From contig CP001848.1 in the NCBI GenBank assembly GCA_000025185.1, forward strand, positions 4,290,001 to 4,322,000: DNA of 32,000 nt. The letters run 5' to 3'. This DNA is from Pirellula staleyi DSM 6068. GTDB lineage: Bacteria > Planctomycetota > Planctomycetia > Pirellulales > Pirellulaceae. Both the position numbers and the translations under genes were made by a program. The first letter of the stretch is position 1. Each line of letters starts with the position of its first letter. Positions 9,783 through 29,755 of this stretch are shown here, piece by piece. The notes under the pieces are model-generated. The model saw only the letters and a program-made list of their open reading frames with translations, did no database searches and was not told the DNA's origin.

Positions 9783-9810
9783 GCTGAGTTGATTGACTTC
9801 GGATACTACG

Positions 9811-12263: not shown

Positions 12264-14228
12264 TTGGCCAACACCAGCAGTCGACGATTTGCCGAATACC
12301 GTGAAGAGGTCCGCAAGCGGCACGCGAAGCCACAAAAAGCAAACCCAGCCGAACAAGCAAGTGATGATGCCAAAGATGGGGATCCCAAAAAGAGTCCGCG
12401 AACGCGTTCCTTTTGGCAGCTGTTCGTCGCCTTTCTGGGCATGCTGCGCGGACACGAGTGGTCACTCGGAATAGCCCTCTTCACACTCACAGTCGCCACG
12501 CTGCTGCGACTCGTGCCGCCTCTTGCAACCAAGCTTGTCTTCGACAACGTTCTCACTCCCAAACCTCTCCCAGCGTGGTGGACGGAAACGCTTCATCTCC
12601 CCACCGAGCAGCGAAAGGTGCTCTGGTGGATTGGCGGCGGAGTTGCGTTCCTCTCGATCATTGCCACCGCGATACATCTGATCGGCCGCTGGGCTGCCAC
12701 AAAGGCTGTCAATCGACTGCAAGTGAGCATTCGTAGGCAAGTGTTCTCCCATGCCGTGCACCTGCCGCTCCATCGCGTTTATCAGCTAAAAAGTGGTGGC
12801 GCCACGAGTTTGCTGCGCGATGATGCTGGTGGCGTTTCAGAGCTCGTCTTCAGCATGCTCTACAATCCATTTCGCGCCATCATCCAGCTGACAGGAAGTT
12901 TGATTGTGCTGCTGTGGGTCGACTGGCGGATGATGCTGGGAGGTTTGCTCCTGCTGCCTGCGGTCTACATCACGCATCGCACCTGGATCGCGCGGATTCG
13001 CCCGCTTTATCGCGATATTCGATCGCGCCGCCAAGAAATCGATTCGCAGACTACCGAGACATTTGGCGGCATGCGCGTGGTGCGTGCCTACTCGCGCGAA
13101 CGTGGCGAAGCTGCCCGCTATGTATCGTCGAATCACCTGATGATTCGTCAGCAGTTGTTCGTCTGGTGGTGGACTCGTGTGATCGAACTCACTTGGGAGG
13201 TCCTCGTTCCCCTCGCTTCGGTCGCCTTGCTCCTCTACGGCGGAAGTCGGGTGCTGGAGGGGGATCTGACGATCGGCGACGTGACGATGTTTCTCATCTA
13301 CCTCACGATGCTGCTGGGGCCTCTCGAAACGCTGGCCACCAGCGCCACCACTTTTCAAAATAGTCTGGCGGGGCTCGATCGGGTGCTTGATTTGCTAGCT
13401 GAACAACCCGAGGGAACTTCCACGAGCGCAACCATTCCGCTCGTTCGCGACGCTGTGCGCGGCGAGATCGAATTTCGCGATGTCTCGTTTCATTATCCCG
13501 GCACACAGGCGAATGTACTTACCAATATCGACCTGCGCATCGCCGCTGGTTCCACCGTAGCTCTCGTCGGACGAAGTGGTGCTGGCAAGACAACGCTGAC
13601 AAATTTAGTCGCTCGCTTTTACGACCCAACTTCGGGAAGTGTGCTGCTCGACGGCGTCGATTTGAAGAGCATCGACCTCGACGACTTCCGTGGACTTCTC
13701 GGCATGGTGGAGCAGGAGGTCTTTCTGTTCGACGGCTCGATTGCCGAGAACATTCGCTATGCTCGCCCCTCCGCTAGCGAGGAAGAATTGCTGGCTGCAG
13801 CCAAAGCCGCCAATGCACATGAATTCATCGAGCGTCTGGAAGATCGCTACGACACCCTGATTGGCGAGCGGGGTGTGAAGCTCAGCGGCGGTCAAAGGCA
13901 GCGGCTCGCTATTGCGCGGGCCATTCTCGCGGATCCCAAAATCCTGGTACTCGACGAAGCGACGAGCAATCTCGATTCCGAGAGCGAGCAGCTGATTCAC
14001 CAAAGTATGCGTGAGCTACTGGCGGGGCGAACAGCATTTATCATTGCGCACCGCTTGAGCACCATTGTCGAGGCCGACGCGATTGTGGTCCTCGAACAGG
14101 GGCGAATTGTCGAGATCGGGACTCACGAGGAGTTGATGGCGCGAAGCGGCCACTATCAGCAGATGGTTCAGCTGCAACTGGGTGGCGCCACATCCCCGCT
14201 CGTCGGCCCGCTGGGTGATACGCCGTGA
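12264..14228 (+). CDS. ABC exporter, fused permease and ATP-binding protein (MsbA-like type I exporter)
   Basis: Six-TM exporter domain, then a nucleotide-binding domain with Walker A GRSGAGKTT, signature LSGGQRQR, Walker B ILVLDEATS and H-loop IIAHRLST. The TTG start at 12264 is uncertain; it gives a charged ~50-aa N-terminal extension. Confidence 0.9.
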   Translation: MANTSSRRFAEYREEVRKRHAKPQKANPAEQASDDAKDGDPKKSPRTRSFWQLFVAFLGMLRGHEWSLGIALFTLTVATLLRLVPPLATKLVFDNVLTPKPLPAWWTETLHLPTEQRKVLWWIGGGVAFLSIIATAIHLIGRWAATKAVNRLQVSIRRQVFSHAVHLPLHRVYQLKSGGATSLLRDDAGGVSELVFSMLYNPFRAIIQLTGSLIVLLWVDWRMMLGGLLLLPAVYITHRTWIARIRPLYRDIRSRRQEIDSQTTETFGGMRVVRAYSRERGEAARYVSSNHLMIRQQLFVWWWTRVIELTWEVLVPLASVALLLYGGSRVLEGDLTIGDVTMFLIYLTMLLGPLETLATSATTFQNSLAGLDRVLDLLAEQPEGTSTSATIPLVRDAVRGEIEFRDVSFHYPGTQANVLTNIDLRIAAGSTVALVGRSGAGKTTLTNLVARFYDPTSGSVLLDGVDLKSIDLDDFRGLLGMVEQEVFLFDGSIAENIRYARPSASEEELLAAAKAANAHEFIERLEDRYDTLIGERGVKLSGGQRQRLAIARAILADPKILVLDEATSNLDSESEQLIHQSMRELLAGRTAFIIAHRLSTIVEADAIVVLEQGRIVEIGTHEELMARSGHYQQMVQLQLGGATSPLVGPLGDTP

Positions 14229-14356: not shown

Positions 14357-16867
14357 ATGCTCGCTCTCTCCGTGCATCTCGCGTCTGCTTGTCGCCTGCG
14401 ATGGTTTGTCGCAGCACTAGCCGCGCTATTGTCGTTTGGTTGGACGCCACCGCTACTCGCGGAGCCATCTCCGACCGATCGAGCAGCACTCGATCATTTC
14501 GAAAAACGGGTGCGCCCCGTTTTGGCAAAGCATTGCTACCGTTGTCACTCGACGGAGTCGGGTAAGGCGGAAGGAAACTTGCGGCTCGATTCGCGTGACT
14601 CGATTCGTCTCGGCGGAGATCGCGGGCCGGCTGTGGTTCCGCACAAGCCCGCTGAAAGCATTTTGCTCGATGCGGTGAAGCATGTAGCCGACGATCTAAA
14701 AATGCCGCCGCGTGCCCCCCAGCTCGAGATGAGTGTAATTGCCGACCTCGAGACGTGGATTAAAGAGGGGGCCATCGATCCGCGCGAAGCAACTGCTACT
14801 CGTTCTGTCAGCAATCCGGCTGATTTTTGGGCCTACCAGCCGATTCGCGATGTCGCTGTTCCGCAGGTTGAAGACTCCGACTGGCCGCGCACCTTTGTCG
14901 ATCATTTTGTGCTCGCCAAGCTTCAGGAAAAACAGCTCTCTCCATCTCCCGACGCATCACCGCGCACGCTGCTGCGCCGCTTGTCGTACGATCTGATCGG
15001 ACTCCCTCCTTCGCTGGCCGAAATTCAGGCGTTCGAAAAATCGATCGCCGATCGCGGAATCGAGCCTACGCTGACAGCCAAGGTGGATGAGTATCTAGCA
15101 AGCTCGGCTTACGGCGAGCGCTGGGGACGAATCTGGCTCGATGTAGCCCGCTATGCCGAGTCGAGTGGAAAAGAAGCGAACATCACGTTTCCCTATGCCT
15201 GGCGTTATCGAGACTACGTGATCGACAGCATGAATCGCGACGTGCCGTACTCGCAGTTCATCACCGAGCAAATTGCCGGCGATCTTCTACCAGCGGAGAA
15301 TCCTGCTGAGCGCGCGCGGCTGTTGATTGCAACAGGCTTCCTCGCGATCGGCCCGAAGAATTTGGATGAAGCGACGCCGGAACAGTTCGAAGCCGATGTG
15401 GTCGACGAACAGATCGACGCGGTTTCGCGAGCGTTTCTCGGGTGCTCCATTGCTTGCGCACGGTGTCACGATCACAAGTTTGCGCCGTATTCGATGAACG
15501 ACTACTATGCGATGGCAGGGTTCTTTCGTAGCACTCGTACCTTCTTCGGCACCCATGTGTCACCTGCGAATCGAATTAGTGGTGATCCACTCCAATTGCC
15601 GCGCGAGGCCGAGCAGCCGATCTTGCATGCTGGAATTTCTCGCGAGCGGGTGAAGAAGCTCACCGAACAACGTGCCGCCCTCCAGGAAGAAGAGCAGACG
15701 CGCCGTAAGCGGGCTTTCGAAGCGATTCAAAACGGGACCGATCCTGAAAAGGAACTCAGCATCACCGATGCGCTGCGGATCTTTTGGTCGCTCGGTGGTA
15801 TCGAAGGAGAACTCGAGCGGGTCGATGACGAAGGAAAGCCGCTCCCCCTCGCGCTCGGTGTGCTCGATCGCGAAAAGATTGTCGATGCCCAGTTGTTTGA
15901 GAATGGGGATGTCACGCATCCGGCCCAGGCAATACCACGCGGTTTCCCAGCGTTTTTTGCCTCGCGCGTCAGTGCGCCCGCGATCCCAGAGGGGCAAAGT
16001 GGACGTCTAGCGCTCGCGGCCTGGATCACCCATCCCGATCATCCACTCACGTCGCGCGTGATCGTTAACCGGGTCTGGCGTCAGCTCTTTTCGCGCGGTC
16101 TTGTTGCGTCCGTTGATCTGCTGGAACCGGGGGGAGATCAGCCGAGTCATGCGGAGCTACTCGACAAGCTGGCAACGACGTTTGTGAAAGAAAAAGGTTC
16201 CCTCAAGTCGCTCGTCCGGACGCTAGTGTTGTCGCGAACCTATCGGCAGGGATCCGATTTTCGTGAGGCACCTTTCGCGAGCGACCCCGACAATCGCTGG
16301 CTTTGGCGCTATACCCCTAAGCGGCTCGATGCAGAAGCGATACGCGATTCGCTATTGCTGGTGAGTGGTGATCTCGATCGAAAGCGCCCTGTGGGTTCGC
16401 TCGTAGCTCGAAAGATTGGTGATCGGCCAGTAGCGCTCCTGGGTCTCGATCCGTCGATTCCAGCCGACCTCGATGATGGACTCCATCGCTCGGTCTACTT
16501 GCCGATCTTGCGTGATCGTTTGCCCGATGTGCTCGAGCTTTTTGATTTTGCGGAACCAAGTTTAGTCACCGGGGACCGGCAGACAACGAATGTTCCTTTG
16601 CAATCGCTGTACTTCCTGAACAGCCGATTTGTCGTGGCGCGGGCCCAGTCGATGGCAAAGCTGGCGCTGCAGAATCGCGACGACTTGCAGTCGCAAGTCA
16701 GCGAGGCGATTGCGATCTGCTTTGCGCGCTCGGCAGCCGCCGATGAACTCGAGCGTGGCGTTCATTTTGTGAAGCAGGCGGAACAACTCGGCGCCGATCG
16801 TTCTGCGGCGATGGCGGCGTATTGTCAGTCGCTCGTTAGCACCGCCGAATTTCGATTCCTGGAATAG
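14357..16867 (+). CDS. Planctomycete cytochrome-c domain / DUF1549 / DUF1553 (PSCyt1-PSCyt2-PSD1) secreted protein
   Basis: 836 aa. Signal peptide. Haem-c motif in KHCYRCHSTESGKAEGNLRLD. DUF1549-type LLRRLSYDLIGLPPSLAEIQAF and [21 protein letters not shown]1553-type [22 protein letters not shown]. Confidence 0.92.
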   Translation: MLALSVHLASACRLRWFVAALAALLSFGWTPPLLAEPSPTDRAALDHFEKRVRPVLAKHCYRCHSTESGKAEGNLRLDSRDSIRLGGDRGPAVVPHKPAESILLDAVKHVADDLKMPPRAPQLEMSVIADLETWIKEGAIDPREATATRSVSNPADFWAYQPIRDVAVPQVEDSDWPRTFVDHFVLAKLQEKQLSPSPDASPRTLLRRLSYDLIGLPPSLAEIQAFEKSIADRGIEPTLTAKVDEYLASSAYGERWGRIWLDVARYAESSGKEANITFPYAWRYRDYVIDSMNRDVPYSQFITEQIAGDLLPAENPAERARLLIATGFLAIGPKNLDEATPEQFEADVVDEQIDAVSRAFLGCSIACARCHDHKFAPYSMNDYYAMAGFFRSTRTFFGTHVSPANRISGDPLQLPREAEQPILHAGISRERVKKLTEQRAALQEEEQTRRKRAFEAIQNGTDPEKELSITDALRIFWSLGGIEGELERVDDEGKPLPLALGVLDREKIVDAQLFENGDVTHPAQAIPRGFPAFFASRVSAPAIPEGQSGRLALAAWITHPDHPLTSRVIVNRVWRQLFSRGLVASVDLLEPGGDQPSHAELLDKLATTFVKEKGSLKSLVRTLVLSRTYRQGSDFREAPFASDPDNRWLWRYTPKRLDAEAIRDSLLLVSGDLDRKRPVGSLVARKIGDRPVALLGLDPSIPADLDDGLHRSVYLPILRDRLPDVLELFDFAEPSLVTGDRQTTNVPLQSLYFLNSRFVVARAQSMAKLALQNRDDLQSQVSEAIAICFARSAAADELERGVHFVKQAEQLGADRSAAMAAYCQSLVSTAEFRFLE

Positions 16868-16889
16868 TTGGCAGTCTGCCGGTCAGAAA

Positions 16890-18359
16890 GTGGAAGCCAT
16901 GCAACCCAATCAAGCTTCGACGTTTCCTTCCTACTCACGCCGCGCGATGCTGCAAAGCACCGCCAGTGGCTTTGGGCTCGTAGCATTTTCGGCCCTGGCA
17001 CACACCTTGGCTGCGCAGGAATCGGCTGTTCCGCCTACGATTGCGGTGGGCAAATCAGCCGCGAAAGTGCTGCACCATGCGCCGCGCGCGAAGCGGGTGA
17101 TTTTCCTCTGCATGAACGGCGGCCCTTCGCACGTCGATCTGTTCGACTATAAGCCGGAACTCGAGAAAAACAGTGGTAAGCCGGCCACCGTGGGAGGCAA
17201 GAAAATTGGACCTGCACTTCTGGGAAATCCGCATCCATTTTCGCAGCGTGGCGAGTCGGGACTTTGGATGTCGGCTTTGCTTCCTGAACTGGGAAAGATG
17301 GCCGACGAGCTCTGTGTTGTTCGAAGCATGCATACCGATCTGCCGAATCATTCGCAGGCGTTTCTGCAAATGCACACCGGCAGCTTTCAATTCGTTCGTC
17401 CGTCGCTCGGGGCCTGGACTCTGTATGGTCTTGGTTCCGAGAACGAAAACTTGCCGGGATTCGTGACGATCAACCCTCCTTCGGATAACGGCGGCGCGCG
17501 GAACTACGGTAGTGGATTCCTTCCTGTGCATTGTCAGGGGACCCGGATTGGTGCTCCTCGCATCCCCGCTTTCTATGCAGCATTACTTGGCCGGGATGAA
17601 GAATCGGGCCCACCTCTGAAGCATTTGACGCCACCTTCGACGACCGAGCGATTGCAGCAGTTGCAGATCGAGCTCATCACAAGGCAGAATCAAGACCTAG
17701 CGACAGCTCGGCCGCATCAGCCGGAGATTGAGGGGGCGATTGCATCGCTCGAGCTCGCTTTTCGAATGCAGGGGGAAGTTCCCAAGGTTCTCGAGCTTAA
17801 AGACGAATCGGCTGCCACGCTGAAGCAGTATGGGATTGGGGCAGGCCTTCCGACCGATCGATTTGGGCGGCAATGTCTCATGGCGCGACGGATGGTCGAA
17901 GCGGGGGTGCGATTCGTGGAAGTGACGGCGCCGACTTCGTGGGACCATCACTTTTTACTGCGCGAAACACTTGCCACCAGCTGCTCGCTCGTCGACTTGC
18001 CGATGCGAGGTCTGCTCGAAGACTTAAAGAGTCGTGGCCTGCTCGACGACACGCTGGTGATCTGGGCTGGAGAGTTTGGCCGAACTCCGTATGGCCAAAG
18101 TGGCAGCGGACGCGATCATAACCACAAGGGATATTCGATTTGGATGGCGGGGGGAGGTGTTAAGCGGGGAATCGCCTACGGAGCGACCGACGAAATTGGT
18201 TATGAAGCAGTCGAAAACCCAGTGCATCTGCACGATTTTCACGCCACGATTTTGCATCTCTTGGGGCTCGATCACGAGCAGCTCACCTTTCGCTATGGTG
18301 GCCGCGATTATCGACTGACCGATGTCTATGGACGCGTTGTCAGCGACCTTTTTGCCTAA
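16890..18359 (+). CDS. DUF1501 domain-containing protein (alkaline-phosphatase/sulfatase-like fold), Tat-exported
   Basis: Twin-arginine leader SRRAMLQSTASGFGLVAF. Conserved blocks VIFLCMNGGPSHVDLFDYKPEL, WDHH, GEFGRTPYGQSGSGRDHN, HLHDFHATILHLLGLDH. GTG at 16890 or ATG at 16899 as the start. Confidence 0.92.
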   Translation: MEAMQPNQASTFPSYSRRAMLQSTASGFGLVAFSALAHTLAAQESAVPPTIAVGKSAAKVLHHAPRAKRVIFLCMNGGPSHVDLFDYKPELEKNSGKPATVGGKKIGPALLGNPHPFSQRGESGLWMSALLPELGKMADELCVVRSMHTDLPNHSQAFLQMHTGSFQFVRPSLGAWTLYGLGSENENLPGFVTINPPSDNGGARNYGSGFLPVHCQGTRIGAPRIPAFYAALLGRDEESGPPLKHLTPPSTTERLQQLQIELITRQNQDLATARPHQPEIEGAIASLELAFRMQGEVPKVLELKDESAATLKQYGIGAGLPTDRFGRQCLMARRMVEAGVRFVEVTAPTSWDHHFLLRETLATSCSLVDLPMRGLLEDLKSRGLLDDTLVIWAGEFGRTPYGQSGSGRDHNHKGYSIWMAGGGVKRGIAYGATDEIGYEAVENPVHLHDFHATILHLLGLDHEQLTFRYGGRDYRLTDVYGRVVSDLFA

Positions 18360-18380
18360 GTCCAGTTCGGCTCTGCTAGG

Positions 18381-19163
18381 TCAAACCGACTGCAGAAATT
18401 TCGCAGCGAGTTCCGTCGCCGAATTGATTCCAAACCGCTGATAAACGGCCTTCACGTGATCGTTGATGGTGTGGAGCGTAACGCCGAGCGAGGTTGCGAT
18501 ATCTTTACGTGCCATGCCATCAAGCAGCATCAGCATCACGAGTCTCTGTCGGGGCGAAAGCCCAATAAATGACTCGGAGGGAATCGCTTCGCTTACTTGT
18601 GGGGCGAGCCATGCCACCCCTGCGGCAATGCAATCGACGGCACGCACTTCACGATCCGTAAACGGTTCGCGTCTCAGTCGGCGAATGAAGCTGAGATTGA
18701 ACCAGGTGTCCTTCGAGATGTAGCAAACGGCACAAAGCCAGTCGTCCCAGCCGTTCGGCTCCAGGCAGTTTTTGAAGAAATCGGATTCATACCAAACATC
18801 ATCGCTCCACGCATTGCTGCGCGAAATCGTCGCTAGCGGAGCAAGTTGCAGTCGCTGGGCAATTGGTGCTGCCGACCAACGTTTTCCTTCGGGGGCCATC
18901 GCCAGCGTGGCAAACTTTGCAAACTCGTCAGGAGTAAATCCCGAGTGAATGATGGCGACGGGGGTCACTTCGCTCGAGTCGGGATGACCACGTCCCCAGC
19001 AGTAATACCCGGCATCAGCTGCAACGTATTTGACCAGGGTGTCTAACAAACGCTGACGACGCACCGCGCGATCAGGCGTGAGTGCCTCGGTACTGGACAC
19101 CAGTTTCAGAAGCGCAACAACTTCTTCTCGGGACATCACCGCCTCTTGCGGTAGCGTCGACAT
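18381..19163 (-). CDS. LuxR-family transcriptional regulator with an uncharacterised N-terminal domain
   Basis: C-terminal HTH LSPRQRLVMLMLLDGMARKDIATSLGVTLHTINDHVKAVYQRFGINSATELA. The N-terminal ~190 aa carries no receiver or autoinducer-binding motif that I recognise. Confidence 0.85.
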   Translation of the reverse strand: MSTLPQEAVMSREEVVALLKLVSSTEALTPDRAVRRQRLLDTLVKYVAADAGYYCWGRGHPDSSEVTPVAIIHSGFTPDEFAKFATLAMAPEGKRWSAAPIAQRLQLAPLATISRSNAWSDDVWYESDFFKNCLEPNGWDDWLCAVCYISKDTWFNLSFIRRLRREPFTDREVRAVDCIAAGVAWLAPQVSEAIPSESFIGLSPRQRLVMLMLLDGMARKDIATSLGVTLHTINDHVKAVYQRFGINSATELAAKFLQSV

Positions 19164-19445
19164 AAGTCGATACCTGCGTTCTAAAGTTTTCGGAGGGAGG
19201 CTGACGTAGTTGGTTGGTAGCGTGCACGGAATGTAGAGAGCCCCATGCGGACTGACAACCGATTATTAACGAGCCTTCCCGACAGAAGCGGGGGAGTAAA
19301 CTCGCTAAATACCGCAGGAATTCTGGCACCAATTGGAGCAGCGCTACTGCATGCAAGAAGATGATTTTGCGGAAAACCGCGACAGTCACACGCGGGCCGT
19401 GGTGCCAATCGGATCGCAGGCGTCACGCGCGCTAGCCAGCAGCCG

Positions 19446-20015
19446 CTAGAAAGTTGACTGATCGAGTCCACGTGCACGAAGTGCTTGACGCAGTCGGCTC
19501 AGCCGCGCGCGAACGATGGCAGCACTGGTGCTGATCGCAGCGGCTATTTCAGCGGTCTCGCAACCCGCAATCCGCATTTCGACGATGCGCTGATCGACCG
19601 GCTCGAGCGAGTCGAGAATTTGCTGTAGCGTTTCGTCCGCCACGGCAGCATGATCGGGTTGGTCGAGTGTCACCGGTTCTGGCAGTGGGGTGTCGCTCGA
19701 TTTGGTTTTGGAACGCTGCGCTGTGCGAATCACCTTGTGTCGCAGCACGGTGATCGCCAGACCAATGAGCTGCTCTTCGCATTCAAAGGCATAGCGACCT
19801 TCCTGAAGCCCCGGCAGCATCGCCCGATGCACCGACTGCACTAAATCTTGCGAGTCGACGACATGGCGGATCGGCTGTCCGACGAGCGCGCGTGCTGCGA
19901 GCTGAAGACGGCGCTCGTAACGCGCCAGCAATTCTGCCAGCGCCTGCGAATCCCCTTGGGAGGCACGCTTCAGCAGCTGCGCTAATTGTTCAGGGCCTGT
20001 CGCCGATTGATTCAT
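19446..20015 (-). CDS. ECF-type RNA polymerase sigma-70 family factor
   Basis: The ORF track extends to 20099; I prefer the ATG at 20015 (MNQSATGPEQLAQLLKRASQGD). Region 2: ELLARYERRLQLAARALVG...DSQDLVQSVHRAM. Region 4: LEPVDQRIVEMRIAGCETAEIAAAISTSAAIVRARLSRLRQAL. Confidence 0.88.
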   Translation of the reverse strand: MNQSATGPEQLAQLLKRASQGDSQALAELLARYERRLQLAARALVGQPIRHVVDSQDLVQSVHRAMLPGLQEGRYAFECEEQLIGLAITVLRHKVIRTAQRSKTKSSDTPLPEPVTLDQPDHAAVADETLQQILDSLEPVDQRIVEMRIAGCETAEIAAAISTSAAIVRARLSRLRQALRARGLDQSTF

Positions 20016-20139
20016 CGTGGTGAGGGTATCAGTAAGTTTCCGATCCGTCGCGTTTGGCTTAGGATAGCACGAAGTGGCCTGATCTCCCAAATCGTTCACA
20101 GGACACGCAAGGGCACGTGGTAGTTAGCCCTAGGAAACC

Positions 20140-23100
20140 ATGTCGACCAAAATTAGTGCCGCCACCATTCGAACCTGGTGCTGCCAACTCGAGCAGCGTT
20201 TGCGTCAAGGGGAGAAGGTGCGCGCGGAAGCGTGGCTGAGCGAACCAGGAATCGATGCCGAGTCGCAGCTCGAACTGATTTACGCCGAGTATGTTTGTCG
20301 CGAAGAGCTCGAGGGAAACGTTGCGGCTGAGGAATATTTCGAGCGATTTCCACACTTGCGCATCGAGCTCGAGGAGCAGTTTCTGGTTCACCGAGCACTG
20401 GCGGGAGAGGCTCGCGATCGCCCAACCAGAGGTCAACGCGTCGGCAAGTATGAACTGCTCAGCGAGCTGGGGCGTGGAGCCCGAGGGGCTGTTTTTCATG
20501 CTGAGCCGATCGGTGGTGGAGAACCAGTAGCGCTGAAGCTGCTACTGACTGGGCAGTATGCTACGCCGGCGGAACAAAAACAGTTTCAGCACGAAGCGGA
20601 GGTTTTGCGGCTGCTTCAGCATCCCAGCATCATTGGAATTCGCGACGCTGGTGTGGCCGATGGCCGCCCCTACTTGGCGATCGATCTCATGGAAGGATCG
20701 ACGCTGGCAAGTAAGCTGGCCGATTTTTCTGAACCAACGCGTGCTGCGCAGCTGATTGCGACGATTGCGGAAGCAATCGATTACGCGCATCGCCAAGGTG
20801 TCATTCATCGCGATCTGAAGCCGTCGAACATTTTACTGACGACTGAAGGGACACCTAAGGTCTCCGACTTCGGTCTGGCGCGATTGCTCGACAACACCTC
20901 GGGAAATACACGGACCGGAGATCTCGTCGGGACGATCAGCTACATGGCTCCCGAGCAAGCGGCTGGCAGTGCGCATCGCGCGGGACCGGCAGCTGATGTC
21001 TACGCCCTCGGGGCCATCCTCTATCACTTGCTCACCGGGCAGCCTCCGTTTGGCTGCGAGGCTGCAGCGCAGTCGATTCTGCAACTGCTCCATGATCCTC
21101 CGGTTCGGCCTCGTCGTTTGCAGCGCACCATTCCCCAAGCACTCGAAACCATATGCCTGAAATGTTTGGAAAAAGATCCTCTTCGGCGGTACTCGAGCGC
21201 TCAAAGCCTCGCCGATGATCTACAGCGGTTCTTGCGCGGAGAAGCGATTGCCGCGCGCACTTTATCGACTTGGGAGCAAGGGATCCGCTGGTCGCGGCGA
21301 CGTCCCGCACTTGCTGCGCTGCTGGGTGTGATTGTTGTCGCTATCGTGGCTGTGACGCTCGGAAGTTTGTACTACAACGCGCGCCTGGCGTCGCTGCTGA
21401 GCCGCGCGAAAGAACTGCAGCAGGAAACGTCGAATGCGAATACACGCCTGCAAGTTTCGCTCGACGAAGCGGAAGAATTACGCGCTGAAGCCCGCTTGCA
21501 AAAAGAGATGGTGGAGCGACAGCTCGAAGATACCAGGCGCGCGTTCTATGCGCTGCAGCTAACACAACTGCCATCAATTACGAGTCGCGAGCCGGTGCGA
21601 GCCCGCGAAATTCTGGCCGACGAAAAGTTCTGTCCCCTCGATTTACGCGATTTCACGTGGCGTTATTTCAATGAAGTGGCTTCGCTGCAAGAGCGTGAGA
21701 TTCGGCCCCATCGAGGGGTGGTAGAAGCAGTGGCGTACCTGAGCGACGAGCGGGTCGCTAGTGGTGGCGAAGATGGCACACTCGCCATTTGGAATCCGCA
21801 TCAGAAGTCGCCTCCTACTCCACCGCTTTCTATGCAAGCGCATAGCGAGGCGATAACCGATCTGCAAATCGATGCCGAAGGTCGCATCATCACCGTTTCG
21901 CGCGATCGGCAGCTGAAGCGTTTCGATGCCGTCGATCTTTCGCTACTCGCTTCGGTCGAATTACCAGCCGCAATTCATTCGTTATCGCTCATTGGCAACA
22001 GTACCCTGGCTGCATGTGGGTGTGACGATGGCACCATTCAAATCGTCGATCTTTCCACGATGGAGATCAAATCGAAGCTCGCGGGGCATGAGGGAGCCGT
22101 CTTTTCAACCGAAGTCACTGCCGATGGATTGACGCTCTATTCCGGCGGTGCTGATCATCAACTCCGGCGATGGAATCTTGCGAAAGAGCTCGAAACCGCC
22201 ACATGGACTGGCCATACCGCGTCGATCAAATCGATCACGTGCACGAGCGATCACAGCGGTTTGGTCACAACCTCCGATAACGGCGAAGTATTACTCTGGA
22301 ACTTGGAAAAGGGGATCGCACGACCACTCCGCGGACACTTAATGTCGGTCCAGGCGTCGGCATCGTGCGCGAAGACAGGCAGGCTCATCACCGGTGGCGA
22401 GGATTCCTATTTGAAGGTCTGGGACATCGCGACCGGGAACGAAGTGACCAATGTGATGCGCGCGTTTGTGAGAACGGTTGCGATCTCCCCCGATGGACGC
22501 GAAGTGGCTGCTGGCGGTCGCGATGGTCGAATCTTGATTCTTGAACTTCCGGAGTATCCCCCTCCGGCAAGCTTCACGCCGATTCCGCATATCGCCTCGA
22601 TGACTGCAGCGGGGAGTGACCAGCTGATTGCGGCCGGAGATGATGGTCGTGTTTACGTCTTCCACCGCACCAGTGGAAAACTACTCGATACGATCGAGGT
22701 CCCAGCGACCAATCAAGGCCCCACGCGTGCACTCGGTGTCGAGGCGAAGAGTCCTCATGCCATCAGCGTCTCGTCCGACCAACAACTACTCGCGATTGGG
22801 GCAGGCGAAGGGACGGTGGTGCTCTGGGATTTGCAAGCGCGACGCGAGCTTCGGCGTCTGCAAAAGCATAAGGAAAATGTGACCGCTGTGGCGTTCCATC
22901 CCACGCTTCCGATTCTCGTCAGCGCGGGGCTCGATCACGCAGTTATCGTCTGGGATCTCATGACGATGGAGCCGATCGATCAGCTGACGGGACATACAGC
23001 CGGCATCTTGGCCGCGCAGTTTTCGAGCGACGGCGTGCTTCTCGCCACTGCTGGTGAGGACTCGACGATTAAACTTTGGCGGTTTCCATCGCGCACGCTC

Positions 23101-23508
23101 GAGGCGACGCTGACGGGCCATAAATTATGGGTCCTCTCGCTGGCGTTTTCCCCCGACAATCGTCAGCTCGCCAGTGGGAGCCGCGATCGCTCTGTGATGC
23201 TGTGGGATATTGAGCAGCGACGTGCAACGCAGCGTTTGAGCGGATTTACCAACTGGGTCCACTCGGTCGGCTATACAGCCGACGGAAAAACGTTAGCAGC
23301 AGGTTCGGGGCATTACAGCATCGATAGCCCGGGGGAAGTGCGGCTGTATGATCCGCAAGCTGGCTACCTGCGAACGACGCTCGAGAAAGTCCGCTCCCCG
23401 ATTTTGTTTGGGCCCGACGATCAATCTCTTTATGTTGCCGTCGAGCAGGGGATTGCAGAGCTGCGAGCAACGCCCGCAGGGAGCTTGAATTCGATGAATG
23501 CCCCGTAA
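20140..23508 (+). CDS. Transmembrane Ser/Thr protein kinase with a C-terminal WD40 repeat array
   Basis: 1122 aa. Hanks kinase motifs GRGARGAVF...VALK, HRDLKPSNILL, DFGLARL, SYMAPE. One TM helix (PALAALLGVIVVAIVAVTLGSLYY, around aa 389-412). Coiled-coil segment. About 13-14 WD-like repeats (LAIWNP, LRRWNL, VLLWNL, LKVWDI, VVLWDL, VIVWDL, IKLWRF, VMLWDI). Confidence 0.93.
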   Translation: MSTKISAATIRTWCCQLEQRLRQGEKVRAEAWLSEPGIDAESQLELIYAEYVCREELEGNVAAEEYFERFPHLRIELEEQFLVHRALAGEARDRPTRGQRVGKYELLSELGRGARGAVFHAEPIGGGEPVALKLLLTGQYATPAEQKQFQHEAEVLRLLQHPSIIGIRDAGVADGRPYLAIDLMEGSTLASKLADFSEPTRAAQLIATIAEAIDYAHRQGVIHRDLKPSNILLTTEGTPKVSDFGLARLLDNTSGNTRTGDLVGTISYMAPEQAAGSAHRAGPAADVYALGAILYHLLTGQPPFGCEAAAQSILQLLHDPPVRPRRLQRTIPQALETICLKCLEKDPLRRYSSAQSLADDLQRFLRGEAIAARTLSTWEQGIRWSRRRPALAALLGVIVVAIVAVTLGSLYYNARLASLLSRAKELQQETSNANTRLQVSLDEAEELRAEARLQKEMVERQLEDTRRAFYALQLTQLPSITSREPVRAREILADEKFCPLDLRDFTWRYFNEVASLQEREIRPHRGVVEAVAYLSDERVASGGEDGTLAIWNPHQKSPPTPPLSMQAHSEAITDLQIDAEGRIITVSRDRQLKRFDAVDLSLLASVELPAAIHSLSLIGNSTLAACGCDDGTIQIVDLSTMEIKSKLAGHEGAVFSTEVTADGLTLYSGGADHQLRRWNLAKELETATWTGHTASIKSITCTSDHSGLVTTSDNGEVLLWNLEKGIARPLRGHLMSVQASASCAKTGRLITGGEDSYLKVWDIATGNEVTNVMRAFVRTVAISPDGREVAAGGRDGRILILELPEYPPPASFTPIPHIASMTAAGSDQLIAAGDDGRVYVFHRTSGKLLDTIEVPATNQGPTRALGVEAKSPHAISVSSDQQLLAIGAGEGTVVLWDLQARRELRRLQKHKENVTAVAFHPTLPILVSAGLDHAVIVWDLMTMEPIDQLTGHTAGILAAQFSSDGVLLATAGEDSTIKLWRFPSRTLEATLTGHKLWVLSLAFSPDNRQLASGSRDRSVMLWDIEQRRATQRLSGFTNWVHSVGYTADGKTLAAGSGHYSIDSPGEVRLYDPQAGYLRTTLEKVRSPILFGPDDQSLYVAVEQGIAELRATPAGSLNSMNAP

Positions 23509-23557
23509 TTTTACGGAGGAAGCTCACCGATCGCGCTGCGTCAGCTTGTGCTACGAA

Positions 23558-25000
23558 TTAGCCGGTAACGAGTTTCAAGAAGGGCTCTCCTTCGTTGAGT
23601 GTGGCCCGTTCAGGGCGACCCTTATGAGCGTAGACGAGACCCATGTGATCGATTCCTAGCAGATGCAGAATCGTGGCATGGATGTCGTGCACGTGGAGGC
23701 GGTTTTCGATGGCGTGCAAACCGATTTCATCGGTCGCCCCCCACGTTCGTCCCCCTTGAATACCGGCTCCCGCCATCCACATCGAAAAACCTGCCGCGTT
23801 GTGATCGCGCCCATCGCCTTGTTCGGACTGTGGCGTCCGTCCGAATTCGCCACCCCACACCACTAAGGTGCTCTCGAGCAAACCACGTCGTTTCAGATCT
23901 TCGAGAAGTCCTGCTACAGGTTTGTCCATGCTCTTGCAAAGCGATGCGTGGTTGCGTTCGAGCCCCGCATGCGAGTCCCACTTGCTTCCGGCACCATGAT
24001 ACAGCTGTACGAATCGAACTCCACGTTCGACGAGACGTCGCGCGAGTAAACACTGTTTGCCGAAGCCAGCTGTTTCTTTCGCGTCGAGACCGTAGAGCTG
24101 CGAAGTCTCTTCGGTCTCTTGAGTCAGGTCGACAGCTTCGGGCGCTTTGGCCTGCATACGAAACGCCAGTTCGTACGACTTAATGCGGGCGTCGAGTTCC
24201 GTCTGATGCTCGCGATCGGTCAAGTGCAGTTGATTCAGCCGATTCAGGTAGTCGAGCTTTTCGCGCTGACGCAGATCGCCGACCGATTCTGGCGTATGCA
24301 GGTTTCGAATCGGTTCGCCTGTTGGCTCGAGCCGCGTCCCTTGATAGCCTGCGGGCATGAATCCTGAGCCCCAATTCCGCACGCCATTGACGACTTGTCC
24401 CGCGTTATCTTGCATCACAATGAACGCCGGGAGATCTTGATTTTCAGAGCCCAGTCCATAGGTGACCCAGCTTCCGAGTGAAGGCCGCCCCGCCAGAATC
24501 GAGCCGGTGTTCATCTGACAAACGCCACCCGAATGGTTGATGCCGTCGGCCCAGCAGGAGCGGATGAGGGCGATGTCGTCGGCTCGCTCGGCCAGATGTG
24601 GCAGCCAATCCGAGAACCACATGCCACCTTCACCATGCTGCTGAAATGTCCGTTTGCAGCCCATCAGGGGGGCGTTGTTTTCGCCCATCGCCAAAATGAT
24701 TGGCTTGAACGACGAGGGGAGTTGCTGACCGTGGAGCTTATTGAGTTCGGGCTTCGGATCAAACAGATCGATGTGGCTCGGGCCACCTTCCATGAACAAG
24801 AAGATGACCGACTTCGCGCGCGGCGCGTGATGTGGTGCCCCTGAGTTTCGCTGTGCTGCAGACATGGTATCAGCAGCACGCGAACTTCCACCCACGAGCG
24901 ATGCCAGCGCGAGGGCACCGAAGCCAGCGCCCCCTTGCAGCAGAGCTTGTCGCCGCGTGACGATCGAACTCGAAAAACGCTCTTGCCACAGGTTTGTCAT
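23558..25000 (-). CDS. DUF1501 domain-containing protein, Tat-exported (second copy)
   Basis: The ORF track extends to 25084 and would overlap the upstream gene. The ATG at 25000 gives MTNLWQERFSSSIVTRRQALLQGGAGFGALALASL, with a twin-arginine leader. Conserved blocks VIFLFMEGGPSHIDLFDPKPEL, WDSH, GEFGRTPQSEQGDGRDHN, HVHDIHATILHLLGIDH. Confidence 0.92.
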   Translation of the reverse strand: MTNLWQERFSSSIVTRRQALLQGGAGFGALALASLVGGSSRAADTMSAAQRNSGAPHHAPRAKSVIFLFMEGGPSHIDLFDPKPELNKLHGQQLPSSFKPIILAMGENNAPLMGCKRTFQQHGEGGMWFSDWLPHLAERADDIALIRSCWADGINHSGGVCQMNTGSILAGRPSLGSWVTYGLGSENQDLPAFIVMQDNAGQVVNGVRNWGSGFMPAGYQGTRLEPTGEPIRNLHTPESVGDLRQREKLDYLNRLNQLHLTDREHQTELDARIKSYELAFRMQAKAPEAVDLTQETEETSQLYGLDAKETAGFGKQCLLARRLVERGVRFVQLYHGAGSKWDSHAGLERNHASLCKSMDKPVAGLLEDLKRRGLLESTLVVWGGEFGRTPQSEQGDGRDHNAAGFSMWMAGAGIQGGRTWGATDEIGLHAIENRLHVHDIHATILHLLGIDHMGLVYAHKGRPERATLNEGEPFLKLVTG

Positions 25001-25038
25001 ACGTCGCACCGAGATAAAAAAGGTAATCTGCCAGACGA

Positions 25039-27546
25039 TTAGTCGACGTAAAGAAACTCGCTGCTGTTGAGCAGCACATGACAAAAGTCGACCCAGCGGC
25101 TGCGATCGGCTTCCGACTGCTCGGGTTTGCTCGCTGCAGAGTCATCTGAAGCGGTCCCTAGGTAGTTTTCCGCGAGGGTCTCTTCGGCACTCGTGGGGAG
25201 TCGTCCATAGGCAAACTGATAAGCGGTGCGAATTCGCTCGAGTCCACTCGCCGAACCTTGGCTGGCAAGACGTTTTTCGAAAGCAGCTGCCTGCTTGAGC
25301 GGAAACTCGCCGTTGAGGAGCAGTAGTGATTGCGTGGCGGTAATCGTCACATTGCGGCGTGCGCAACTTCCAACACCATCAGCTGCGTCGAAAGCGGCAA
25401 GCAACGGATCTTGGCTATTGCGAGATTGTTTGGTGTAGATCGACCGTCGCGGCGCACTGGCATCGGCTCCCGCTGCAGCAGTCCCATCGATCAGCTGACC
25501 ACTTACCAGGAGCATCGCATCGCGCGTTTGCTCGGCATCGAGACGGCGGATCGGCATCCGCGCGAGCCATTTGTTCTCAGGATCTTTCTCGATCGACACT
25601 TTGACTTCACTTCCGGCCGACGCTTGCTGATAGGTCCGCGAGGTCACTAGCAGGCGATGGATCGCCTTGAGACTCCACTGCTGCGCGATGAGCTGGGTTG
25701 CAAGGTAGTCGAGAAGTTCGGAATGCGAGGGGCGTTCTCCCAGCGTTCCAAAGTCGCTCGGTGTGGCCACAATTCCGCGCCCAAAGTGCTGCTGCCAAAG
25801 TCTATTGACAATCACGCGCGAAGTGAGCGGATGATCGGCTCGCGCGAGCCAGTTGGCTAGTGCCAATCGTCGCCCCGTGGTTTTGCTGGTCGGCGCGATC
25901 GACGGAGGGGCATCACCCAGCACCGTGAGAAACGCAGGTTCAATCGGCTGAGGTTCGCGAGTGCCTGGGATGACCGTGGTCGCTGCCACAGGACGCAAAT
26001 CGGTGGCGATCATCGCCACTGGAGGATTCGGTTTCAAAGCCTGGTGTTCAGCCAGTTGCTTTTGAAGTTCCTGGTATTTCTTCTTATTGTCGGCCGAAAG
26101 TTTCTCATGGGCACGATCGTATTCGAGTGTCACTTGCCGATAAGCTAGTTCGAACAGCTGCTGCTCACCGGTTGTTCGCTCAGCTTCAGGTTTGGAAAAA
26201 ATTGCCTGGATATCGAGCGGAAAACGATCGGCAGCCGCTTTCATTTCCTTCTTACGAATCGGCTCTACAAGTGCGTCCATCTCGGCGCGAATCGCTGCCG
26301 TTTTTTCGTTCCAAGTAGCGAGCGCTGCTTCGTCACTGACACGCTGCTGTTCGCTAGCGTAGATCGGTTCTTCACGGAAACCGAGTCCGCCAAAAAACGA
26401 CTGGAAAGCAAAATAGTCCTTCTGCAGAATCGGATCAAATTTGTGATCGTGGCATCGCGCACATCCCATTCCCATGCCGAGAAACACGTCGGCCGAGACG
26501 TCGGTGATATCGTTGATGATTGCCGACCATTGGCCGCGCACATCGCGCTGGTTGTATTCGTAAGGCCAGAGCCGCAGATAGCCAGTCGCAACCAGCGAAT
26601 CGTACGTCGGTGATGCGAGTTCGTCGCCTGCGAGTTGTTCTTTCAGGAATTGATCGTACGGCTTATCGTCGTTGAAACTTCGCACGACATAGTCGCGATA
26701 ACGCCACGCATGGGGACGAGCGGAGTCGAGGCGATAACCATCGGATTCAGCGTAGCGCACCAGATCGAGCCAGAGGCGTGCTTGACGTTCGCCATAAGCC
26801 TGACTCGCAAGCAATCGATCAACGAGTTGCTCGTATGCATCGGAGTGTGTGTCGCCGAGAAATGCTTCGATTTCTGCAGGTGTGGGGGGCAAGCCTGTCA
26901 GGTCGAACGTGACGCGGCGAATGAGCGCGCGCTTCGAAGCATCTGGCGCTGGAGCAAGTCCCTGCAACTGACGCTGCGCTGCGATGAAATGATCGACCGG
27001 ATTGCTGGCCCAACCCGCTCCTGCACTAGGCAGAGGTGGAGCCACCGGCGTTTGAAAGGCCCACCATTTTCGGTCTTCGTCGGTAATTTTTCCGGGGGTG
27101 CGATGTGTCGAAGCTGTCCCCACTTCTTTGGCCACATCATTCTCGGGCCAGTAGGCACCAGATGCGACCCACTCCACAAGCGTAGCGATCGCTTGTTCGG
27201 GCAACTTGCCGGTCGGAGGCATTTCGTAGTCTTCAAATCGAACTGCCCGCACGAGCGTGCTCTCGTCAGGCTTCCCCGCCACTACTGTTGCGCCCGATTC
27301 TCCACCGGCCGAAAAGCCGGTGAAAGTATCGAGCCGCAAGCCTCCCCGCTGTTTATCGGGGCCATGGCATTTCTGACAATGCTCGACAAGAATTGGCCGG
27401 ACCTTCGACTCAAAAAACTCGAGCTGCTGACTACGGTCGGTTTGTGAATCCGCAGCGCTCGCAATTGTCGACAGGCCGATGCCGAGCAGCACGGCGACGA
27501 GCAAAGAGCGCCAAAGAGGGCGAATTGGAAGTGGTCGGCGGAGCAT
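25039..27546 (-). CDS. Planctomycete cytochrome-c domain / DUF1549 / DUF1553 secreted protein (second copy)
   Basis: 835 aa. Signal peptide [31 protein letters not shown]. Haem-c motif [81 protein letters not shown]. Confidence 0.92.
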
Positions 27547-27686
27547 GGAGAGGTCTTTCCCGAGGTCATGGCGACGCTACTATCGCCTCTAACTATGGAA
27601 AGCCATTAACACCCGCTAGCGCACCAAAATTCTCTCGAAAATTGTCAGAAATTCGCAGGAATCGGATGGTCCCGAGCATTCTCAAT

Positions 27687-27775: not shown

Positions 27776-29755
27776 CTATTCCGGTGAAAGTTGACTCAGC
27801 GGGACAGTCGCAAACTCAAGGCCTTGTCGAACTTCATAGACGATGCCGATGCGGTCGTTTGGCAGCAGCACCATCGAGCTATACATACAGCCTCTCGGGT
27901 CGAGCATGTAGCCGCTGCTGAACGTTTGACCGTCGTCGCTACTGAGTCGCAGCGTGAGTCCCATGCGATGGGAGGAACTTCCCGGACTCGCCATCACCAT
28001 CCGTTTTCCACCGAGGCTGATCAAACTCGCCATGCAAACAGGATCGGGAACCGAAGTCCACGCTTTCGACCATTTCCCCTCGGGCAGGCCGGGCTTTTCG
28101 GCTGTTTTCGACCACTCCCAAACATTCCAGCTGCGCCAGCCACTACGCGATTCGTCGCGCATCGAGAGGAGCAGGGAACCGTCGGAGCGCTCGGCGATTT
28201 GCGCTTCGCTGGTGGGATATTCGGTCGGAACAGCGGCGGGGGCAATTTGCCAGTGGTCGCCATGATCGCGGCTGTAGATGAACGTCGAATGCGGGGCACC
28301 CAGTTCGTCGCGAAACTGGGCAGGAATGATTAGCGTGCCATCGCTGGTTTGAATGCCAGCTCCGGGACCTTGAAAACAGAGACGCCACTTCGGGTTTTTG
28401 ACCTGCGCGGTGATGTTGATCGGCTTCGACCACGTGACCCCTTCGTCGTCGCTCCGAACTAAAACGAATTGCCCCGTTTCCTCAGGTGCCAAGCCTGGCC
28501 CTGAACCATGCCAAGCGCGATCCCCTTGCGACCAAAGAGCCGCTACCCAAAGGACGTTTTTCTCACGATCGACCAGGATGGTTGGATCGCCCACTCCATT
28601 GCCGCGCGATTGCGGAACGGACTTGTCAAAATCGACGATCGTTTGCATCTTCGACCAAGTCTTTCCTTGATCGGTGCTCCGCACCAGTCCGACGTCGATA
28701 TTGCCCGGAAGATCGGCGCTGCTGTCGTAGCGGATATCGAATACTGCGAGCAACGTTCCCTTCGGCGTGTAAGCCAACCCGGGAATGCGATAGGTGTGCA
28801 CGCCATCCTCTTGCGAGGAGCGGAGCATCGGACGAATCACTCCCTGGGGAACCACAGCAGCATCGTTTCGACTGGTCGACTCCGCTGGGATGAGCTTCGA
28901 TGCACGAGTGATTTGCAGCGAAGCCGCAGCAACTTGCTCGCACTCTTTGTCGCTGAGTGCTCGCTCGAAAAACTGAAGCTGCGCGATATCGACAGGCAGG
29001 CCGTTCTTGGTTGCAACATCGGTTCCCAGAATCAGCCCGGCGAGTGACGCAGCATGCTCGATCGTCTGCGAACTTTGCGACCAACTTTTCTCGGTGGAGA
29101 TTCCGTGCGTCAGCCTGGCCACATCTCCGCGCCGCGCAAGACGCACGACATGCGTTTGCCATTGCTCGGCGATAAACGTGTGCGTCGGAACACCTGGAAA
29201 ATCGTTGGCGCGGCTGTCGGCCTTCTGAAGGCCGACGTGCCACTTTCCATCGCGCAGGTAAAGACGAATTAAGCCGGCAGCACTCGATCCATCGAATACA
29301 AAGCCCGAGGAATCCTGCTGGTAGGGATTCAACGTGACAACGAGCGTGAAGTCTTGGGCATGCACTCCCCAGCTAATGGCGGTTTGCCAAATCGCCGACT
29401 TTCCATCGAGACGAACGGCTCGAAATTTACTGTCCGAACTTGCATACTCGATCACGGTCGGCTGACCATGCATGCGCGAGAGGGACTCCTTCCAGCGCGC
29501 CGGCGCGATCGACGCTTCATAAGCACTTGCTGAGGGGGGCTTGCTAGGCTGCGGAAGCCGACTGCGCCAGCCGATGACAAGCGGCTCAGCCACATCGAGC
29601 GAGGCTCCGTCGTAGTGACGGTTTGGCGCGAGCGCAGGCTCATCTGCCGCTGCACAGACGCTAGTCACAAGCAGCAGCAACACGCCGAGCCATATCGAGC
29701 AACTGCTTGGAGAGTGCTGGCTACTCAAGTGACAATTTCGAGCTACTGGATCCAT
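27776..29755 (-). CDS. Exo-alpha-sialidase (GH33-type, BNR/Asp-box) with an N-terminal lectin-like domain
   Basis: 659 aa. Signal peptide. About 290-aa N-terminal beta-rich, possibly LamG/ConA-like region. FRIP-type VHTYRIPGL. Four Asp-boxes: STDQGKTW, SDDEGVTW, SRDHGDHW, SSDDGQTF. Confidence 0.9.
   Translation of the reverse strand: MDPVARNCHLSSQHSPSSCSIWLGVLLLLVTSVCAAADEPALAPNRHYDGASLDVAEPLVIGWRSRLPQPSKPPSASAYEASIAPARWKESLSRMHGQPTVIEYASSDSKFRAVRLDGKSAIWQTAISWGVHAQDFTLVVTLNPYQQDSSGFVFDGSSAAGLIRLYLRDGKWHVGLQKADSRANDFPGVPTHTFIAEQWQTHVVRLARRGDVARLTHGISTEKSWSQSSQTIEHAASLAGLILGTDVATKNGLPVDIAQLQFFERALSDKECEQVAAASLQITRASKLIPAESTSRNDAAVVPQGVIRPMLRSSQEDGVHTYRIPGLAYTPKGTLLAVFDIRYDSSADLPGNIDVGLVRSTDQGKTWSKMQTIVDFDKSVPQSRGNGVGDPTILVDREKNVLWVAALWSQGDRAWHGSGPGLAPEETGQFVLVRSDDEGVTWSKPINITAQVKNPKWRLCFQGPGAGIQTSDGTLIIPAQFRDELGAPHSTFIYSRDHGDHWQIAPAAVPTEYPTSEAQIAERSDGSLLLSMRDESRSGWRSWNVWEWSKTAEKPGLPEGKWSKAWTSVPDPVCMASLISLGGKRMVMASPGSSSHRMGLTLRLSSDDGQTFSSGYMLDPRGCMYSSMVLLPNDRIGIVYEVRQGLEFATVPLSQLSPE

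Follow-up and report, generated by a model that had tools for sequence, protein, structure and literature searches.

Two independent PSCyt/DUF1501 gene pairs in Pirellula staleyi, one of them probably belonging with an ECF sigma factor and a WD40 kinase

Introduction

Does a symmetric gene map reflect a common regulatory unit? This question is raised by a stretch of 32,000 nt of the genome of Pirellula staleyi DSM 6068 (here called the window; all window coordinates are numbered within that stretch), in which two gene pairs on opposite strands point at each other and enclose three regulatory genes. Each pair consists of a gene for a large protein with the domains PSCyt1, PSCyt2 (DUF1549) and PSD1 (DUF1553), followed by a gene for a DUF1501 protein. 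We refer to the left-hand genes as PSCyt#1 and DUF1501#1 (pair 1) and to the right-hand genes as PSCyt#2 and DUF1501#2 (pair 2); L-numbers denote the loci used for comparison. An earlier note on this DNA had described the arrangement as a mirror image around a core consisting of a LuxR-type regulator, an extracytoplasmic function (ECF) sigma factor and a membrane kinase, and had suggested that both pairs are possibly controlled by these enclosed signalling genes.

PSCyt/PSD1 and DUF1501 proteins occur in dozens per genome in many Planctomycetota and Verrucomicrobiota, with 41 copies each of PSD1 and PSCyt2 reported for R. baltica (Wecker et al. 2009). A module of DUF1501 and PSCyt1/PSCyt2/PSD1 proteins with signal peptides and twin-arginine leaders was described in bacteria of the Planctomycetes-Verrucomicrobia-Chlamydiae (PVC) group by Kamneva et al. 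2012 (PMC3542564), who left its function open, and He et al. 2017 (PMC5615132) found PSCyt genes in the vicinity of sulfatase genes and in fusions with carbohydrate-binding modules. According to Wecker et al. 2009, a PSD1/PSCyt2 protein of R. baltica was proposed by Studholme et al. 2004 to be under the control of the ECF sigma factor RB10049. We found no paper that assigns an activity to DUF1501, DUF1549, DUF1553 or PSCyt, in agreement with the earlier statement that no function has been demonstrated for the pair. The gene pair (2012), the pairing of ECF sigma factors with kinases and the regulation of a PSD1 protein by an ECF sigma factor (proposed 2004) are already in the literature; the origin of the mirror image from a single 8.3-kb insertion or deletion (indel), the conservation of a four-gene block across orders and the conserved upstream element of that block are new. 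Here, we present evidence that the window holds two independent pairs and that the right-hand pair probably belongs together with the sigma factor and the kinase in the 8.3-kb block.

Results and discussion

Two independent copies of a widespread gene pair

Open reading frames (ORFs), Pfam matches and translations placed all seven genes, their motifs and the gaps between them where the earlier note had put them. In a homology search, PSCyt#1 proved 100% identical to a protein of P. staleyi DSM 6068. PSCyt#1 (14357..16867, plus strand, 836 amino acids (aa), with the motifs CYRCH and CARCHDHKF) is separated by 22 nt from DUF1501#1 (16890..18359, plus strand, 489 aa, SRRAML twin-arginine leader; Pfam PF07394, E 1e-142), or by 31 nt should the latter begin at the ATG at 16899. 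PSCyt#2 (25039..27546, minus strand, 835 aa), which has the same architecture and carries CQKCH and CARCHDHKF, precedes DUF1501#2 (23558..25000, minus strand, 480 aa, TRRQAL twin-arginine leader; Pfam E 2e-160) by 38 nt. The longest ORF of DUF1501#2 extends 28 codons further upstream to a TTG (25000-25084, minus strand) and overlaps the end of PSCyt#2; we place the start at the ATG at 25000 because the lengths of the orthologues (467-481 aa) support it. The genes between the two pairs in the window are exclusively regulators: a LuxR/GerE-type regulator (18381..19163, minus strand, 260 aa), the ECF sigma factor and the kinase.

The paralogues are clearly diverged, as had been noted from their correctly quoted DUF1501 C-termini: PSCyt#1 and PSCyt#2 are 40% and 35% identical over two separate segments, and the identity of the DUF1501 proteins is 46%. 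Another P. staleyi DUF1501 protein is closer to DUF1501#2 (69% identity) than DUF1501#1 is, and the two pairs are thus not each other's closest paralogues. The pairing itself is common, as the earlier note had held: a co-directional DUF1501 gene lies within 2.5 kb in 54 of the 64 related loci with enough downstream sequence, so the adjacency is far from chance. Two such pairs close together are not unusual either, since 11 of the 32 related loci with full 10-kb flanks have a second PSCyt or DUF1501 gene nearby. The region contains, in two independent copies, a gene pair found widely in Planctomycetota and Verrucomicrobiota.

This bears on the idea that the LuxR-type regulator, the sigma factor and the kinase control both flanking pairs as one mirror-symmetric regulon. 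The arrangement does exist as described, with only regulators between the pairs; however, the frequency of nearby second pairs and the relationships among the paralogues speak against a common unit, and so does the comparison with the closest relative.

One indel probably accounts for the symmetry

The closest relative found, L001, is a 46-kb contig from a sequencing run. Its genes are arranged in the order thioredoxin/NHL, MoxR, DUF58, small ORF, DUF4129, ATP-binding cassette (ABC), PSCyt and DUF1501; LuxR, BNR and dihydrodipicolinate synthase (DHDPS) family genes come next, on the other strand, and 10 flanking genes are syntenic with the window at protein identities of 51-92%. The LuxR orthologue (64% identity) lies between the DUF1501 and BNR genes. 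Pair 1 and the LuxR gene are thus retained in L001, but the sigma factor, the kinase, DUF1501#2 and PSCyt#2 are all missing, and the indel between the two loci adds or removes exactly these four genes. As a unit, the mirror image does not survive this comparison. The LuxR-type gene and pair 1 appear to belong to an older neighbourhood and not to the 8.3-kb block, and the symmetry would for this reason be a by-product of one insertion or deletion. The LuxR regulator may not even belong with pair 1 but with the BNR and lyase genes, because in L001 the BNR and DHDPS genes directly follow it.

DUF1501#1 orthologues directly follow the PSCyt#1 orthologues in L001-L003, and among distant orthologues, in Anatilimnocola sp. 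NA78 and in a Pirellulales metagenome-assembled genome (PSCyt 58% identity), only the pair is conserved, with no regulator near it. Together with the lack of the pair-2 upstream element in front of pair 1 (see below), these observations make joint control of both pairs by the enclosed genes a very improbable explanation.

The borders of the segment that is missing from L001 were located by alignment and coincide with two copies of the 11-nt direct repeat GAAAGTTGACT, which occurs exactly twice in the window against an expectation of 0.01, at a spacing of 8337 bp. The left copy (19449..19459, plus strand) overlaps the last codons of the sigma factor gene and adjoins its stop codon; the right copy (27786..27796, plus strand) lies within the 3' coding end of a BNR/sialidase-like gene (27776-29755, minus strand, 659 aa). 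Such borders raise the possibility that the block is a recent island, gained by horizontal transfer from a donor akin to the Gemmatales, with a duplication of the target upon insertion at the BNR gene's 3' end. This proposal concerns only the origin of the block and is compatible with the association of pair 2 with the sigma factor and kinase. Besides the absence from L001 and the repeat at both junctions, it is favoured by the last sigma codons, which read through the left repeat copy with the stop codon directly beside it, and by the best matches of DUF1501#2, which come from Gemmataceae and Isosphaeraceae at 74-76% identity. However, no integrase, transposase or terminal inverted repeat was found in the block, its GC content is uniform without a shift in composition, and the same data are equally accounted for if the repeats recombined in the L001 lineage and the block was lost there. 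A clean cut-and-paste insertion with an 11-nt target duplication was considered and fits poorly with the position of the BNR stop codon, which lies between the right repeat copy and the interior of the block. On balance, a recent island is a serious candidate for the origin of the block, if somewhat short of an even chance.

The four-gene block recurs with pair 2

A scan with PSCyt#2 had returned relatives of ~50% identity, none of which had a sigma factor or kinase nearby, and had suggested that pair 2 is unlinked to regulators. This view was overturned by the true PSCyt#2 orthologues (55% identity, full length), which were located through the DUF1501 partner, on the contigs of the closest DUF1501#2 matches. 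In the Gemmataceae isolate CJuql4 (L084), in metagenomes (L085/86) and in Limnoglobus roseus (L087), the PSCyt and DUF1501 genes, in this order, are convergent with a kinase-WD40 gene, from which an ECF sigma gene diverges. The arrangement in L. roseus is exactly that of the window, where the DUF1501#2 and kinase genes converge with a gap of 49 nt to the kinase 3' end; L084 and L085 have two extra genes between the DUF1501 and kinase genes. In L084, L085 and L087, the orthologues are 74-76% (DUF1501), 55-56% (PSCyt, full length), 41-47% (kinase) and 48-50% (sigma factor) identical to those of the window. L096, found in a metagenome scan with a sigma alignment, is a further linked case (sigma 53%, DUF1501 74%). 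Over all loci, the DUF1501#2 orthologues are 72-76% identical, and full-length PSCyt#2 orthologues at 55-56% are present in L084, L085, L087 and L158. The genes around the block differ in every locus, while the four genes keep the same relative orientation. By these comparisons, the block is a conserved module that recurs in two genomes of Gemmataceae and in two planctomycete lineages from metagenomes.

The survey of synteny that the earlier note had called for gave a divided answer: linkage to the operons in relatives holds for the sigma factor and kinase with pair 2 and fails for regulators with the distant orthologues of pair 1. That the enclosed signalling genes exert control can plausibly be assumed for pair 2 alone, because the block recurs with it, the sigma factor and kinase orthologues adjoining it in four other lineages, whereas distant pair-1 orthologues have no adjoining regulator. 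The locus thus separates a pair without a conserved regulator from one with a conserved, dedicated-looking sigma factor and kinase.

Many of the ~50%-identical PSCyt#2 relatives (L004-L083, e.g., L006, L009, L018 and L042) have an insertion of ~300 aa before the C-terminus. In the PSCyt protein of L159 (6907-10011), this insertion is annotated as Laminin_G_3, a domain of the carbohydrate-binding type; it is missing from P. staleyi PSCyt#2 and its true orthologues. In L159, which belongs to this subfamily, the genes located divergently upstream of the pair encode a different sigma factor and a kinase that lacks WD40 repeats.

Sigma factor and membrane kinase

The sigma factor gene (19446..20015, ORF to 20099, minus strand) most likely starts at Met29 (position 20015), yielding a protein of 189 aa (Pfam PF07638 and PF08281); this start is preferred because the orthologues (179-189 aa, 48-50% identity) begin at the equivalent Met. 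The protein has no regions other than sigma-2 and sigma-4, and its sigma-2.2 motif reads D-S-Q-D-LVQSVHRA, corresponding to D-S-[QVI]-D across the orthologues with an invariant Ser. Pfam revealed no anti-sigma domain among the genes of the block.

The divergently transcribed gene (20140..23508, plus strand) encodes a membrane-spanning Ser/Thr kinase of the Hanks type with 1122 aa. An N-terminal domain (1-95) is followed by the kinase domain (~100-370), a transmembrane helix (~389-411), a coiled-coil linker and two WD40 propellers that begin at ~520. The catalytic motifs VAxK (K133), HRDLKPxN (H223-N230), DFG (D243-G245) and APE (A270-E272) are invariant. From the transmembrane segment and from the topology reported for planctomycete kinases with periplasmic WD40 repeats and a cytoplasmic kinase domain (PMC11032199), the propellers are predicted to be periplasmic and the kinase domain cytoplasmic. 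The protein aligns colinearly with the kinases of L084, L085 and L087 over ~1100 residues at 41-47% identity, including the unique N-terminal and linker regions.

Residues 1-95 (20140-20424) have no Pfam match, yet they are 33-51% identical in most sigma-adjacent kinases, even in those with differing sensor parts; these ~90 N-terminal residues are a candidate sigma-docking domain. Among 68 loci of the sigma family, a kinase with a homologous N-terminal domain lies divergently upstream in the large majority, wherever the flank suffices. This divergent arrangement is of a known planctomycete ECF/kinase type. PSCyt/DUF1501 genes are found near members of the wider sigma family only sporadically (L101, L108, L127 and L153).

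With the kinase-paired ECF sigma factors described previously (ECF43 with EcfP/PknT and EcfK/PknS, and the planctomycete ECF59-62 and ECF217; PMC8999054, PMC7826278), the P. staleyi protein shares the layout of sigma-2 and sigma-4 only, the lack of an adjacent anti-sigma gene, the adjoining membrane kinase of the Hanks type and the recurrence of the pairing across the sigma family. In ECF43, the DAED motif of sigma-2.2 has been lost (STTA) and the missing charge is supplied by Thr phosphorylation, whereas the P. staleyi sigma factor keeps two Asp residues (D-S-Q-D). Because these are kept together with the invariant Ser, the ECF43 mechanism cannot simply be assumed here. By its motif, the protein is not a member of ECF43, though it may work like one, and the planctomycete groups ECF59-62 and ECF217 are its likelier home.

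A conserved element upstream of pair 2

Approximately 50 nt upstream of the PSCyt#2 ATG lies the two-block element GTGCGCT-N13-GGCTTTC (27598..27624, minus strand), a candidate promoter or operator. In L084, L085/86 and L087, it recurs as GTGCGCT-N13-KGCTTYY in the corresponding position, at a distance of 37-43 nt to the start codon; the pattern was present in none of the 153 other loci compared at the first survey. The window contains no other site without mismatches, and none upstream of pair 1. L158 has the element with one mismatch and L088 a degenerate form. Since L158 lacks a nearby sigma gene, it disproved our initial supposition that the element is confined to sigma-linked loci; the element is better described as a promoter-like feature of the pair-2 orthogroup. 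Autoregulation of the sigma factor via this element was dropped as well, as no copy was found between the sigma and kinase genes.

Architecture of the paired proteins

Both large proteins match PSCyt1 (PF07635), PSCyt2/DUF1549 (PF07583) and PSD1/DUF1553 (PF07587) with E values of 1e-15 to 1e-81, all above the gathering scores. A Sec-type signal peptide can be read directly from the translation of PSCyt#1, which has a class-I-like cytochrome c domain (CYRCH...MPP) and a second CxxCH motif (CARCH) in the PSCyt2/DUF1549 domain. The CARCHDHKF box, previously noted as such, thus contains a second haem-binding type motif, and it is invariant: C60, C63 and H64 (CxxCH 60-64), M116-P118 (M-P-P) and C367-H371 (the second CxxCH) are retained in all 39 PSCyt sequences. 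On account of the invariance of both CxxCH motifs and M-P-P, the PSCyt proteins are potentially dihaem; their matches to Pfam Cytochrom_C and Cytochrome_CBB3 are sub-threshold. The structure model of PSCyt#1 is mostly helical (predicted local distance difference test (pLDDT) 79.5, predicted template modelling score (pTM) 0.77), and a fold search against the PDB gave no match below E 1. A weak, sub-threshold DUF1800 match in the PSD1 region (E 0.007, 38 residues) hints at a possible homology of PSD1 and DUF1800, which we take as a lead only. The DUF1800 and DUF1501 pairs of Proteobacteria (PMC5122149) likewise have a DUF1501 protein with a twin-arginine translocation (Tat) signal beside a larger helical protein of unknown function; unlike the PSCyt proteins, these DUF1800 proteins were not reported with cytochrome c domains.

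For the DUF1501 proteins, the RR pair of the leader (R16 and R17 in DUF1501#2) is invariant in 38 sequences, as are, in this family, GGPS75H, WD342xH344, E385FGRTP, GRD399HN, H436, H438 and H441. A Foldseek search of the PDB with the AlphaFold2 model of DUF1501#2 (pLDDT 70.9, pTM 0.75) returned S1 sulfatases at the top (E 3e-5), LtaS, phosphonate monoester hydrolase and alkaline phosphatase, with a probability of ~1 but TM-scores of only 0.3-0.36 and identities of 9-16%. A profile search of the PDB sequences gave a marginal match (E 0.011) to the helix-strand region of an arylsulfatase before its metal-binding loop. S1 sulfatases carry the formylglycine signature C/S-x-P-x-R, which occurs in neither DUF1501 protein, the position after strand 1 being GGPSH, and neither protein matches the Pfam Sulfatase family (PF00884); we therefore do not class DUF1501 as an S1 sulfatase. 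It differs from these enzymes also in its invariant residues and in its export by Tat rather than Sec. DUF1501 models as a protein of the alkaline-phosphatase superfamily with an active-site pattern of its own.

Both window pairs share the architecture of the published PVC module, namely, a PSCyt1/PSCyt2/PSD1 protein with a signal peptide and cytochrome c motifs, followed by a twin-arginine DUF1501 protein; what the window adds is one orthogroup accompanied by a particular ECF sigma factor and a particular WD40 kinase. The domains, invariant motifs and fold search agree with the earlier proposal of a two-protein periplasmic module made of a Sec-exported haem-c protein and a Tat-exported, metallo-hydrolase-like DUF1501 protein.

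A possible pathway and what weighs against it

How might the four genes work together? The WD40 propellers would sense a periplasmic cue, upon which the cytoplasmic kinase domain would phosphorylate the sigma factor; a possible site is the invariant Ser in the D-S-x-D motif of sigma-2.2. The sigma factor might then drive the PSCyt#2-DUF1501#2 operon from the GTGCGCT-N13-GGCTTTC element, and the two products would meet in the periplasm. There, the haem protein could serve in electron transfer or substrate binding and the DUF1501 protein in a metal-dependent reaction that cleaves or transfers an ester, most likely one of sulfate or phosphate. That the haem protein and the metalloenzyme act jointly in this way, plausibly on a sulfate or phosphate ester, we regard as rather unlikely in this specific form. 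That the sigma factor and WD40 kinase form a dedicated sensory pathway of one PSCyt/DUF1501 orthogroup, with propellers that recognise the pair itself or else its substrate or product, is a tentative idea with somewhat better prospects.

Several observations weigh against the association of pair 2 with the sigma factor and kinase. At three of the eight pair-2 orthologue loci (L088, L089 and L158), there is no sigma factor or kinase within 10 kb, and in L158 the element persists without a nearby sigma factor, so that its presence does not depend on a neighbouring sigma gene. Between the sigma and kinase genes, 12 loci were searched for the element, and no convincing copy was found. The two closest sigma homologues of the metagenome scan (L090, 1354-1866; L091, 9740-10252; 52% identity) have no kinase nearby. 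Outside P. staleyi, every linked locus may come from Gemmatales; descent could in part account for the conservation there, and the copy in P. staleyi could stem from the joint transfer of neighbouring genes. The block, free of integrase and transposase genes and of a shift in composition, fits either an insertion in P. staleyi or a deletion in its relative, and the DUF1501 model is only moderate (pLDDT 71), with PDB matches at low TM-scores (0.3-0.36).

Some of these points would fit a situation in which nothing but descent or joint transfer has made the sigma factor, kinase and pair 2 neighbours, with the regulators controlling other genes and pair 2 being regulated separately. The loci without regulators and the persistence of the element in the absence of an adjacent sigma gene would be expected in this case, the sequence upstream of the sigma gene has no matching element, and a PSCyt or DUF1501 gene is nearby in only ~5 of the 12 long sigma-family loci, modestly above a roughly estimated background (one per ~170 kb, from the 41 copies of each domain in R. 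baltica). However, mere neighbourhood does not sit easily with the finding that, across five lineages and amid differing surroundings, the four genes have kept their linkage and relative orientation, nor with an indel that adds or removes exactly these four genes. Furthermore, ECF sigma factors typically act on neighbouring genes, and a link between an ECF sigma factor and PSD1 proteins was independently proposed in R. baltica. We consider unconnected regulation of these neighbours doubtful, and an association of pair 2 with the sigma factor and kinase in the block remains our preferred reading.

If the dedicated sensory pathway exists, pair 2 would, to our knowledge, be the first member of the family with an identifiable input signal and promoter, and phosphomimetic sigma variants or reporter fusions could lead to the inducing compound and from there to the function of the family. 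Owing to the conserved upstream element, the inducing signal could feasibly be sought with reporters in strains that can be cultured (P. staleyi, Limnoglobus roseus). The locus thereby offers a regulatory handle on an orphan family, and it illustrates that apparent symmetry of a gene map can come from a single indel.

Further features of the region and of the compared loci

Unlike nearly all other members of the sigma family, L090 and L091 also lack PSCyt and DUF1501 genes in those flanks that were available. The helix-turn-helix (HTH) of the LuxR-type protein of the window occupies residues 202-253, at the C-terminus only, and every PDB match better than E 0.2 falls in it. The N-terminal 200 aa matched no Pfam family, so no receiver or autoinducer-binding domain was found there. 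About 200 nt upstream of the LuxR start, a short palindrome, GCGGAAAACCGC (19369-19380; GCGGAAACCCGC in L001, ~14987-14998), is conserved amid diverged intergenic DNA and may represent an operator or the stem of a terminator. Sites matching the consensus of sigma-70 promoters or of intrinsic terminators were no more numerous than in shuffled sequence.

On the right, the BNR/sialidase-like gene overlaps by 13 nt with a gene for a NanA-like lyase of the DHDPS family (29743-30654, minus strand, 303 aa), which suggests a small catabolic operon of the sialic-acid type. On the left, a co-directional cluster (7522-12143, plus strand) encodes a MoxR AAA+ ATPase, a DUF58 protein, a small ORF (9793-10293, no Pfam match) and a DUF4129 protein. 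A thioredoxin/NHL-repeat gene (5031-7379) precedes the cluster and an ABC exporter (12264-14228) follows it, the whole array being syntenic in L001.

At several orthologous loci, the pair is followed by a prepilin-like gene (N_methyl/SBP_bac_10, DUF1559-type) and a gene of ~140 aa, namely in L084 (11500-12950), L085 (11496-12948), L089 (11473-14618, with two tandems of both genes) and L158 (11544-12970); the window has neither gene. A different pair type, PSCyt3/PSD2-5 with HXXSHH, stands beside the PSCyt2/DUF1501 pair in L087 (3429-7279) and L158 (14068-17486), and L158 has a third pair too (Big_2-PSCyt2-PSD1 and DUF1501). These orphan gene pairs tend to cluster.

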